64,000 nucleotides of DNA from Escherichia coli (lineage in GTDB: Bacteria; Pseudomonadota; Gammaproteobacteria; Enterobacterales; Enterobacteriaceae). Made by a program: the position numbers and the translations under genes. Each line of letters begins with the position of its first letter. Positions within the stretch are counted from its first letter, which is position 1. The stretch lies in the NCBI RefSeq assembly GCF_003334785.1, contig NZ_QOWV01000014.1; one strand, 5' to 3'. The notes below the pieces were generated by a model, which did not search any database, was not told the DNA's origin, and was given only the letters and a program-made list of their open reading frames with translations. This document shows, piece after piece, positions 19,846 to 54,305 of the stretch.

Positions 19846-20823
19846 ATGATTTTCACGTCAAGTTGCTGCGATAATTTATCAATAGATGAGATTATCGAAC
19901 GTGCTGAAAAAGGCGATTGCGAGGCTCAATATATTGTTGGGTTTTATTATAATCGCGATAGCGCAATTGATTCTCCGGACGACGAAAAAGCCTTTTACTG
20001 GCTGAAGCTGGCCGCTGAGCAAGGTCATTGTGAAGCACAGTATTCCTTAGGGCAAAAGTATACCGAGGATAAAAGCCGTCATAAAGATAATGAGCAAGCC
20101 ATCTTCTGGCTGAAAAAAGCTGCCCTACAAGGCCATACTTTCGCTTCCAACGCCCTTGGCTGGACACTGGATCGTGGAGAAGCCCCCAATTATAAAGAAG
20201 CGGTTGTCTGGTATCAGATAGCCGCGGAGAGCGGAATGTCTTATGCGCAAAATAATCTTGGGTGGATGTACAGAAATGGCAACGGAGTCGCAAAAGACTA
20301 TGCGCTGGCATTTTTCTGGTACAAACAAGCTGCATTACAAGGCCATAGTGACGCGCAAAACAATCTGGCCGATCTTTATGAAGACGGAAAAGGCGTTGCT
20401 CAAAACAAGACACTCGCCGCATTCTGGTATTTGAAAAGCGCACAGCAGGGTAATCGGCACGCCCAGTTTCAAATTGCATGGGATTATAACGCTGGCGAAG
20501 GGGTGGACCAGGACTATAAGCAAGCGATGTACTGGTATCTGAAGGCTGCCGCTCAGGGGAGCGTCGGCGCTTACGTCAACATCGGTTATATGTATAAACA
20601 CGGACAAGGCGTTGAGAAAGATTATCAGGCTGCCTTTGAATGGTTTACGAAAGCCGCTGAATGCAATGACGCCACTGCCTGGTATAACCTGGCCATTATG
20701 TATCACTACGGAGAAGGAAGACCTGTCGATCTCCGACAGGCTCTCGACCTGTATCGTAAAGTTCAGTCATCCGGAACCAGAGATGTCAGTCAGGAAATTC
20801 GTGAGACTGAAGATTTACTGTAG
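19846..20823 (+). CDS. ybeQ: Sel1-repeat protein, apparently cytoplasmic
   Basis: About seven Sel1-like repeats (AQY.LG..Y..G.GV..D); no N-terminal signal peptide. The start is uncertain (ATG at 19840 or 19846). Confidence 0.8.
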   Translation: MIFTSSCCDNLSIDEIIERAEKGDCEAQYIVGFYYNRDSAIDSPDDEKAFYWLKLAAEQGHCEAQYSLGQKYTEDKSRHKDNEQAIFWLKKAALQGHTFASNALGWTLDRGEAPNYKEAVVWYQIAAESGMSYAQNNLGWMYRNGNGVAKDYALAFFWYKQAALQGHSDAQNNLADLYEDGKGVAQNKTLAAFWYLKSAQQGNRHAQFQIAWDYNAGEGVDQDYKQAMYWYLKAAAQGSVGAYVNIGYMYKHGQGVEKDYQAAFEWFTKAAECNDATAWYNLAIMYHYGEGRPVDLRQALDLYRKVQSSGTRDVSQEIRETEDLL

Positions 20824-51345: not shown

Positions 51346-51389
51346 TTTAATAGATAGTATTCAGTGTATGTATGAGTTCCACACCCATT

Positions 51390-52196
51390 ATGAAAGCATT
51401 CTGGCGTAACGCCGCGTTGCTCGCGGTTTCTCTGCTTCCCTTCTCTTCTGCCAACGCCTTAGCGTTGCAGGCAAAACAGTATGGCGATTTTGATCGCTAT
51501 GTCCTGGCCCTCTCCTGGCAAACCGGATTTTGCCAGAGTCAACACGATCGAAATCGTAACGAACGAGATGAATGTCGCCTGCAAACCGAAACGACCAACA
51601 AAGCTGATTTTCTGACCGTACATGGTCTGTGGCCAGGATTGCCTAAATCGGTTGCTGCCCGTGGTGTTGATGAACGCCGCTGGATGCGCTTCGGTTGCGC
51701 TACTCGCCCAATCCCGAATCTACCAGAAGCGCGCGCCAGCCGAATGTGTTCATCGCCGGAAACCGGATTATCACTGGAAACGGCCGCTAAACTAAGTGAA
51801 GTCATGCCAGGAGCTGGCGGACGTTCCTGCCTGGAACGCTACGAATATGCCAAACACGGTGCCTGCTTTGGTTTTGATCCGGACGCATACTTCGGTACGA
51901 TGGTACGCCTGAATCAAGAAATTAAAGAGAGCGAAGCCGGAAAATTCCTTGCGGATAATTACGGTAAAACAGTGAGCCGCCGTGACTTTGACGCCGCCTT
52001 TGCCAAAAGCTGGGGAAAAGAGAACGTGAAAGCAGTTAAGCTAACGTGCCAGGGTAACCCTGCGTATTTGACTGAAATTCAGATCTCGATCAAAGCTGAC
52101 GCCATCAACGCTCCGCTTTCTGCAAACTCATTCTTGCCACAACCTCACCCAGGTAACTGTGGCAAAACCTTTGTGATTGATAAAGCGGGTTATTAA
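51390..52196 (+). CDS. rna: Periplasmic ribonuclease I (RNase T2 family)
   Basis: Start at the internal ATG (MKAFWRNAALLAVSLLPFSSANA, signal peptide), 268 aa; RNase T2 motifs HGLWP and KHGAC. Confidence 0.9.
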   Translation: MKAFWRNAALLAVSLLPFSSANALALQAKQYGDFDRYVLALSWQTGFCQSQHDRNRNERDECRLQTETTNKADFLTVHGLWPGLPKSVAARGVDERRWMRFGCATRPIPNLPEARASRMCSSPETGLSLETAAKLSEVMPGAGGRSCLERYEYAKHGACFGFDPDAYFGTMVRLNQEIKESEAGKFLADNYGKTVSRRDFDAAFAKSWGKENVKAVKLTCQGNPAYLTEIQISIKADAINAPLSANSFLPQPHPGNCGKTFVIDKAGY

Positions 52197-52425
52197 TCAT
52201 CTGATTTACAAAACACGCTAATTCGTCTTCCATAAACCAAGGCGATTAAGATTTATACATAATGCGCTGCATTGAGGAATTCCCTGAATGTGACGCAAAT
52301 CACTTCAAAGAGTGAGCAACAGTCAGTATCATCATGTGAGTTAAACCCTCGCCGCCTGACGGTGAGGGTTTTCTTTTGGGTATGTTTATCTGCGACACTC
52401 GCAGCACCGACGACATGGAGTAAAA

Positions 52426-52836
52426 ATGTCCAGACCAACTATCATCATTAACGACCTGGATGCCGAACGCATCGATATTCTGCTGGAGCAACCCGCCTAT
52501 GCTGGTTTGCCAATCGCCGACGCGTTAAACGCAGAGTTGGATCGCGCCCAAATGTGTTCGCCAGAAGAGATGCCACACGACGTGGTGACAATGAACAGCC
52601 GGGTTAAATTCCGCAATCTTAGCGATGGCGAAGTGCGTGTGCGCACGCTGGTGTATCCGGCAAAAATGACCGATAGCAATACTCAGCTTTCCGTTATGGC
52701 TCCGGTAGGTGCCGCACTGCTGGGGCTGCGCGTTGGCGATTCCATTCACTGGGAACTTCCGGGTGGCGTTGCAACCCACCTTGAAGTGCTGGAACTCGAA
52801 TACCAGCCAGAAGCTGCTGGCGACTACCTGCTTTAA
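52426..52836 (+). CDS. rnk: Regulator of nucleoside diphosphate kinase (GreA/GreB-like C-terminal domain)
   Basis: 136-aa ORF. Confidence 0.85.
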
Positions 52837-53066
52837 TCCCATCTGCACAAGCGATAACTCGCTTTGCCCAGAGGATGCACTCGCATCCTCTTTACGCAAA
52901 ATCAGCAATTTTTCCTGGTTCTCACTGTTCACTTTTGCTGCAAAATTATTCCGTTTCGTTTGTGGGAATAACCATGGCAGAAGCATTTTACATCCTGATA
53001 GGATTTCTGATTATGGCGGTGATTATCGTCATGGCTGTCCTTTACCTCGAAAACCACTCCTGACGA

Positions 53067-54305
53067 TCATATTGTTCCCCCCGGCATCGCATTCACCAGA
53101 CCTGAAACCGCCTTCTGCGCCGCCTCTGCGCTTTGTGCACCGGGTACCAGAATCACCTTACGGCACTCCTCTTCACGTTTTTCGAAAATCTCATATCCCC
53201 GGGCGGCCTCTTCAAACGGCATATAGTGGGTAACAATTTCTTCTGGTTTCAGTAATCCTTTCTCAATTAACGGTAATAATTCTCCCAGCCATGCGTGAAC
53301 GTGGGTCTGTCCCATTTTAAACGACAACCCTTTATCAAAGGCGTCGCCAAACAGGAAACCGTGAATAAATCCAGCGTAGACGCCCGGTACGCTAACAATG
53401 CCGCCACGCCTGACCGCCGCAATACACTGACGCAACGCTTTACCGCTGCTGCCCTCCAGTTTCAGGTTAGTCAGCACCGTTTCCGTGGTGCTGCCTTTCG
53501 CTTCAAAACCGACGGCGTCTATTACTGCATCCACGCCCCGGTGACCTGCCGTTTGTTCAATAATTGACTGTGCCGGATCGCTGTCTTCATCAAAATTAAT
53601 CGGGATCGCGCCGTAGCGGTCGGCGGCGAAATGCAAGCGGTAGGGATGATGATCAACAACAAAAATCTGTTCCGCACCGAGCAACCGTGCACAGGCGATT
53701 GTCAACAATCCCACAGGACCAGCACCATAGACTGCAACGCTTGAACCTTGTTGGATCTGCGCATTTTTTGCTGCCTGCCATGCCGTTGGCAGAATATCAG
53801 AAAGGAAAAGCGCTTTATCATCTGAAAGCAAAGGCGGTACTTTAAACGGCCCCACATTCCCTTTAGGGACGCGGACATATTCCGCCTGCCCACCAGGAAC
53901 GCCGCCATACAGGTGACTATAACCAAACAATGCCGCTGGAGCTGGTATCTGTTTTTTATTGAGCGCAGCGCCTTTACCCGCATTGGTATTTTCGCAGGCG
54001 GCATATTGTTGCAATCGACAGAAAAAACAGTCGCCACAAGCAATGACGAACGGAATTACCACTCGGTCGCCTTTTTGCAAATTTTTTACGTCCTTTCCGG
54101 TTTCAACTACTTCCCCCATAAATTCATGACCAAAAATATCGCCATGTTTAACCTGAGGTATTTTGCCTCGATAAAGATGGAGGTCAGAGCCACAGATCGC
54201 CGTTGCCGTAATACGCAGAATAATATCATCTGCCTGTTCAACGCCCGGATCGGGAACATTTTCTACCTGAACGTGATGTGGGCCGTGATAAGTCAATGCT
54301 TTCAT
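53067..54305 (-). CDS. ybdR: Zn-dependent alcohol dehydrogenase-like oxidoreductase (MDR family)
   Basis: 412-aa ORF with a GHE zinc-binding signature (GHEFMGEV) and a Rossmann GAGPVG motif. Confidence 0.85.

Follow-up and report, generated by a model that had tools for sequence, protein, structure and literature searches.

The 29-codon gene yldA downstream of rnk in Escherichia coli encodes a predicted single-pass membrane peptide that is very probably a shorter paralogue of YoaI

We analysed a 64,000-nucleotide stretch of Escherichia coli DNA (contig NZ_QOWV01000014.1, hereafter the window) at the short region between rnk and ybdR. The flanking ORF rna occupies positions 51372..52196 and is followed by the rnk leader RNA (52272..52380, + strand), which matches the Rfam family RF01771 (124.9 bits; gathering score, 50). 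This leader is a known element, and it includes a terminator-like hairpin (52343..52371) with TCTTTTGGGT behind it. The nucleoside diphosphate kinase regulator gene rnk (52426..52836, + strand) is the constant upstream neighbour of the gene considered here, yldA, whose coding sequence runs from 52974 to 53063 on the same strand, with its ATG 138 nt past the rnk stop and its own stop codon at 53061..53063. Between the two genes lie, all on the + strand, the rnk 3′ hairpin with a 9-bp stem and a 4-nt loop (52870..52891), a spacer (52892..52963) that we studied by promoter scan and alignment, and a weak Shine-Dalgarno-like GGGAA (52964..52968) placed 5 nt before the ATG. On the other side, the zinc-dependent alcohol dehydrogenase gene ybdR (53067..54305, - strand) converges on yldA, with 3 nt between the two stop codons, as expected from the preliminary description, in which the ORF ended close to the convergent ybdR stop.

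The coding assignment of yldA is based on its translation, the RefSeq annotation, the match to NF041476, the fixed length and pN/pS of the family and the hydrophobicity of the peptide. The 29 codons at 52974..53063 (+) translate into MAEAFYILIGFLIMAVIIVMAVLYLENHS followed by TGA, exactly the peptide that had been read from the ATG at 52974. Comparing the spacer by megablast with 5,426 complete E. coli genomes returned the RefSeq label ‘yldA: small membrane protein YldA’ at the same site, and in strain S1 both the coordinates and the peptide are identical to those of the window ORF (WP_016241970.1). The gene is b4734 (643330..643419) in K-12 MG1655, and the corresponding UniProt entry is YLDA_ECOLI. 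Against the NCBIfam equivalog model NF041476 (‘small membrane protein YldA’), the window peptide scores 51.7 bits (E 6.1e-14), above the curated cutoff of 45 bits, with residues 1-29 aligned to profile positions 1-29. The exact window peptide is found under the YldA name on more than 1000 contigs in public protein collections. Furthermore, K-12 YldA has been detected by immunoblot of a chromosomal SPA-tag fusion, and the tagged protein accumulates in rich medium (VanOrsdel 2018, PMC6001520). It is nearly certain that the window ORF is the real, known gene yldA (b4734), and the proposal of a translated peptide with a single transmembrane segment agrees with the RefSeq annotation, with the NF041476 match and with the K-12 orthologue seen as an SPA-tagged protein. 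The gene carries no novelty, being already named, annotated and experimentally detected; the case shows that a reading of raw sequence alone can single out a genuine 29-codon gene. A plasmid origin of the region was rejected, with a single match in 72,556 plasmids, located on a 517-kb replicon.

The window and K-12 peptides are identical at 28 of 29 residues, the sole change being Val16 in the window versus Ala16 in K-12. This codon (53019..53021) specifies Ala in K-12 and in 32 of the 34 distinct peptides of the family, so the window is not derived from K-12 MG1655. All family-invariant residues (M1, E3, A21, V22, L25 and E26) are present in the window peptide, with the near-invariant A16 changed to V, and both the family core M-x-E ... 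A-x-I-I-V-x-A-V-L-Y-L-E and the length of 29 residues are found. The tail reads ENHS as opposed to the family-consensus ERHW, so that Arg27 and Trp29 are missing. With this tail and Val16, the window allele may be a weaker or altered version of the peptide.

Between the invariant E3 and E26, YldA has an uncharged stretch of 22 residues (A4 to L25). Of the 172 ATG-initiated ORFs in the 64-kb window that encode 25-40 aa, no other is as hydrophobic: the best 19-residue Kyte-Doolittle mean is 3.09 for YldA and 2.61 for the runner-up. On the basis of the uncharged stretch and the hydrophobicity, YldA is predicted to be a single-pass membrane peptide. Two other markedly hydrophobic short ORFs of the window, at 63607..63705 (+, MWWMLLLLVVGWLVVWAIVLRVWRQLMPCITV) and 19886..20005 (+, MRLSNVLKKAIARLNILLGFIIIAIAQLILRTTKKPFTG), were rejected as genes: they lie out of frame inside hcxA and a 327-aa ORF, respectively, and are most likely chance frames. 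As many as 39 ORFs of at least 20 aa overlap the 2.5 kb around the yldA locus; ORF length alone is therefore no evidence of a gene.

Conservation was assessed at 80 rnk loci, one genome per species, from Escherichia, Citrobacter, Salmonella, Enterobacter, Lelliottia, Leclercia, Kosakonia, Kluyvera and others. More specifically, the DNA of each rnk locus was searched with a profile in six frames, ignoring annotation. A YldA-like ORF was found in about 40 of the 80 loci, in every case on the rnk strand, with a start usually about 140 nt past the rnk stop and further away in a few loci with insertions. Extraction by motif yielded 37 ORFs with 36 distinct DNAs and 34 distinct peptides, every one of them 29 codons long, with the consensus MxExLxITLxFLIxxAIIVxAVLYLERHW. 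Mean pairwise differences at codon positions 1, 2 and 3 are 0.27, 0.21 and 0.49, respectively. In frame, pN/pS is 0.39 and, for pairs of moderate divergence, dN/dS is about 0.29; the two shifted frames, most of them interrupted by stops, give pN/pS values of 1.33 and 1.43. The peptide sequence of YldA is under purifying selection. Conservation with synonymous variation in other Enterobacteriaceae, which had been put forward as a check on the ORF, was thus found in the 36 distinct DNAs, all of 29 codons. The ATG of yldA is the only start codon common to all lineages, and many loci have no in-frame upstream alternative. A 62-aa in-frame extension from an ATG at 52875 was rejected on the same grounds, the upstream in-frame starts being missing or unconserved in other lineages.

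The gene is absent from the sampled Salmonella, Kluyvera, most Kosakonia and several Enterobacter, indicating repeated loss, so any role must be dispensable. At one locus, from Enterobacter hormaechei subsp. hoffmannii (L039, approximately 3470..3550), the region upstream of yldA is kept, GGGGACG Shine-Dalgarno included, while a clean deletion has removed the ORF and joins this region to the 3′ end of ybdR. This locus represents a natural yldA knockout, and larger deletions are seen in L033, L034 and L045.

Within E. coli, yldA occurs in two haplotypes. Haplotype 1, the window type, combines the ENHS form of yldA with ybdR and is carried by 3605 complete genomes. Haplotype 2, in 1818 complete genomes, has the EQRW form and lacks ybdR, so that rnk is followed directly by uspG; the 29-codon ORF located at the same place encodes MSEALGITAFYIFIAAIIVAAVLYLEQRW. 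The boundary was apparent from the megablast, in which the haplotype-1 match ends just past the rnk hairpin, at about 52897, in about one third of complete genomes (L002, 3195..3490). The two E. coli YldA alleles are 48% identical in protein and share the motif A-IIV-AVLYLE, and the DNA surrounding them is unalignable by megablast. Haplotype-2 yldA is also the type found in the GTDB representative of E. coli, in E. albertii and in Escherichia sp. MOD1-EC7003 (L003-L005); the window-type peptide resembles those of Citrobacter amalonaticus (69% identity) and C. sedlakii (55%). Since the two haplotypes together account for 5423 of the 5426 complete genomes, which is every genome with rnk, yldA is a core gene of E. 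coli present in two old alleles. The description of two ancient alleles partitioning the species is an addition of this analysis. Across genera, all four combinations of presence and absence of yldA and ybdR were found, and yldA is therefore not an appendage of ybdR.

The ribosome-binding site had been described as weak. This is accurate for the window allele, in which pairing of GGGAA (52964..52968) with the anti-Shine-Dalgarno sequence yields -4.2 kcal/mol, a value equalled by 26% of arbitrary ATGs in the window, yet it is no argument against translation. The median for the orthologues is -8.4 kcal/mol, which corresponds to about the top 3% of arbitrary ATGs, and the orthologues have their G-rich element at the same place (GGGGA in Enterobacter and Lelliottia).

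The possibility that yldA is a chance frame in a T-rich spacer, with an RNA or DNA element (terminator, 3′ UTR) and not the peptide as the conserved entity, was raised in the preliminary description in the form of a chance ORF and now has a negligible probability: short ORFs are indeed abundant, a quarter of arbitrary ATGs have a Shine-Dalgarno element as good as that of the window allele and, as far as the tetracycline ribosome-profiling screen is described in the study citing it (PMC6001520), the ORF is not among its small proteins, but it is refuted by codon-level selection (a length of 29 codons fixed in all 36 distinct DNAs and a pN/pS of 0.39 versus more than 1.3 out of frame) and by the immunoblot of the K-12 allele tagged at its chromosomal locus, and it is contradicted by the retention of the same ORF and motif in the two unalignable E. 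coli haplotypes and by the lack of both significant RNA structure over the ORF ends and an Rfam match at the ORF.

The presence of a hairpin downstream of rnk was confirmed at 52870..52891, where AGAGGATGC-actc-GCATCCTCT folds with -17.8 kcal/mol (z = -5.4 relative to dinucleotide shuffles). The sequence directly 3′ of it, CTCTTTACGC, makes a poor U-tract, and the hairpin was passed over by the consensus terminator scan; it is probably a leaky terminator. The spacer block just beyond is partly conserved, reading aaaaTCAgCa in the window and aaaaTCACCC in most orthologues. A sigma-70 consensus scan found no promoter from the hairpin to the yldA ATG, the sole nearby + strand match (52987..53014) being located inside the ORF, and no convincing -35/-10 pair was seen in a manual look at the spacer alignment. 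The lack of a recognisable promoter, together with the poor U-tract, suggests that rnk and yldA may be co-transcribed. On this reading, which is the simplest, yldA would be transcribed from the rnk promoter by read-through of the leaky hairpin, as samT is with asr, and the rnk leader would also control yldA. It is also possible that yldA has its own promoter of an unrecognised kind. The supplement of Stringer 2021 contains no match for yldA by name or coordinate, and the Term-seq supplements of Adams 2021 contain none for yldA, rnk or ybdR. In a table of fluoride-response genes, yldA is placed ahead of the ‘Downregulated genes’ heading and is thus apparently up-regulated (PMC10100675).

Across about 80 enterobacterial species, the rnk hairpin has a stem (AGAGGATGC / GCATCCTCT) of nearly constant sequence and a variable loop. 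Covariation is confined to the top pair and to a few loci (GATGT..ACATC in L042, L059 and L075). Because intrinsic terminators usually drift faster than this, a sequence-specific role of the stem, for example as a protein site, a processing site or a recombination target, is possible. In Citrobacter amalonaticus (L017, approximately 3445..3640), two copies of the hairpin (gagaggatgcgctcgcatcctct) enclose an extra segment of about 150 nt located between rnk and yldA, and this insert contains a hairpin of its own (aaagaaggaaaaaccacgttttttccttcttt); it looks as if a small element had been inserted at the rnk hairpin or had duplicated it.

The convergent arrangement with ybdR raises the question of whether the peptide matters at all. 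Transcription and translation of yldA into the ybdR 3′ end could by themselves make expression of the two genes mutually exclusive, an arrangement termed excludon. Neither the fold nor the terminator scan revealed a terminator or structure between the two stop codons, only 3 nt apart, so the sequence would let the transcripts overlap; such overlap is reported, with ybdR-yldA listed among the convergent excludons in at least 50% of RNA-seq samples (PMC12288877). Nevertheless, we consider such a purely cis-acting role very unlikely. yldA is kept together with its protein motif in the 1818 E. coli genomes of haplotype 2 and in many other species lacking ybdR, which argues against it, and ybdR is conversely found without yldA in Salmonella and several Enterobacter. 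Moreover, a role in interference would leave the amino-acid sequence unconstrained. Overlap of the yldA and ybdR transcripts may still occur as a secondary effect in ybdR-positive strains.

Database comparison of the peptide pointed to a single related family. For window YldA, the second-best family is the YoaI model NF041475 (E 6.9e-5, 22.8 bits), and the same model is matched by four further YldA variants (E 4e-7 to 1e-4), whose residues 3-29 align to profile positions 8-34. Reciprocally, the second-best NCBIfam family for K-12 YoaI is the YldA model, in one and the same register. YldA variants reach 22-30 bits on NF041475, below its cutoff of 45, and YldA is for this reason not a YoaI orthologue. 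YoaI orthologues were gathered by an exhaustive phmmer search and both families were aligned. In an hhalign comparison, the two alignments match over 27 columns without gaps, offset by 5 residues (probability 96.7%, E 3.6e-10). Transmembrane helices can inflate profile-profile scores. As a control, the column order of the YldA alignment was shuffled, either for all columns or for the helix interior only, 150 times each. The observed hhalign score of 39.5 compares to 9.4 +/- 2.2 when all columns are shuffled and to 14.4 +/- 3.2 when only the helix interior is, and none of the shuffles reached 39.5 (0/150 in each control, 0/300 altogether). In addition, the invariant columns of the two families coincide, with E8, I12, F16, S26, V27 and E31 of YoaI corresponding to E3, I7, F or Y11, A21, V22 and E26 of YldA.

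From these comparisons, YldA is very probably a shorter paralogue of YoaI. Short hydrophobic helices can also converge, and the shuffle control counts against a composition artefact, not against convergence. YoaI (b1788, NF041475) is a 34-aa inner-membrane peptide with, like YldA, a single hydrophobic helix; an N-proximal Glu and a juxtamembrane C-terminal L-E-R/K motif are found in both, and both genes are present in K-12. Differences are also apparent. At the N-terminus, YldA is shorter by 5 residues and does not have the MNDQM of YoaI; the Ser-rich stretch S13-S15 is missing as well, and YldA has Ala where YoaI has the invariant Ser26. It ends in RHW (NHS in the window allele), whereas YoaI ends in RTG, and the genomic context is rnk for yldA as opposed to yeaK/yeaL for yoaI. 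YldA is not known to share the PhoB regulation, the Mg2+ response or the EnvZ interaction of YoaI. No mention of paralogy between YldA and YoaI was found in the searchable literature. What is new here is the statistical case for YldA as a probable YoaI paralogue that keeps the kinase-binding glutamate.

The relevance of this glutamate derives from published work on YoaI (Vellappan et al., PMC11429745). YoaI resides in the membrane, and GFP fused to its C-terminus gives fluorescence at the cell periphery, placing this terminus in the cytoplasm. In a two-hybrid assay YoaI interacts with EnvZ, and it activates omrB, a reporter of EnvZ-OmpR. Both E31A and E31Q abolish the two-hybrid signal with EnvZ and the activation of omrB, and leave abundance and localisation unaffected (PMC11429745). 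YoaI E31 is thus needed for EnvZ binding, and its equivalent in YldA is the invariant E26.

We infer that YldA would insert as one helix with the N-terminus out and the C-terminus in, like YoaI, and that it would act by docking onto a larger inner-membrane protein. Because the glutamate equivalent to YoaI E31 is conserved, a role as kinase modulator can be proposed for YldA: the most likely partner would be EnvZ or a different sensor histidine kinase, with which YldA would make contact via its helix face and the juxtamembrane Glu26, tuning the output of this kinase as YoaI tunes that of EnvZ. We put the probability that the partner of YldA is a sensor kinase at roughly one in three.

Other tiny membrane peptides offer partial parallels. 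The gene of SamT (YdgU, 27 aa) follows the larger gene asr on the same strand at a distance of 93 bp, and the two are co-transcribed; like yldA, it is a tiny transmembrane-peptide gene close behind a larger one. SamT binds the sensor kinase RstB (PMC13425233). No sequence similarity between SamT and YldA was detected, and whereas co-transcription is established for asr and samT, we only infer it for rnk and yldA. Moreover, in contrast to the asr-samT pair, the upstream gene product Rnk is a cytoplasmic factor and not an envelope protein. MgrB, a small single-pass peptide of 47 aa, acts on a histidine kinase by inhibiting PhoQ (PMC11429745). Its likeness to YldA is limited to this proposed functional class: MgrB is unrelated in sequence, longer, and carries cysteines in a functional periplasmic domain.

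The main rival to a kinase partner is another kind of membrane protein. YldA would then be a genuine membrane peptide that assists or stabilises a transporter or respiratory complex in the manner of AcrZ, MgtS, CydX and KdpF, or it would be a membrane-perturbing peptide; we regard this possibility as having somewhat less than an even chance. Transporters or enzyme complexes are the partners of most small membrane proteins characterised in E. coli (review PMC12648545), part of the YoaI sequence is missing from YldA, and overexpression of YoaI itself also has EnvZ-independent effects (PMC11429745). In the fluoride response, yldA is listed beside envelope and osmotic stress genes (PMC10100675), a context indicating no single pathway. 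On the other hand, YoaI is the only family with detectable similarity to YldA, and the residue critical for the YoaI-EnvZ interaction is invariant in YldA. Furthermore, no transporter gene is consistently adjacent, the neighbours being rnk, ybdR or uspG. A role as toxin is unlikely given that the tagged protein accumulates in normal growth and that yldA is an E. coli core gene without a dedicated antitoxin.

Returning to the sensor-kinase reading, the YoaI link provides a concrete and cheap hypothesis, namely a Glu26-dependent contact with EnvZ or another histidine kinase. A broader proposal, which remains doubtful, is that YldA and YoaI could constitute one family of peptides of about 30 residues, oriented N-out/C-in and docking on histidine kinases via a juxtamembrane Glu, with YldA as a second, rnk-linked input to EnvZ-OmpR or another two-component system. 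If this one-family proposal is true, the two E. coli alleles, with their ENHS and EQRW tails, would differ in partner affinity or specificity. The two natural alleles within E. coli, together with the natural deletions in related genera, constitute material for the functional testing of yldA.
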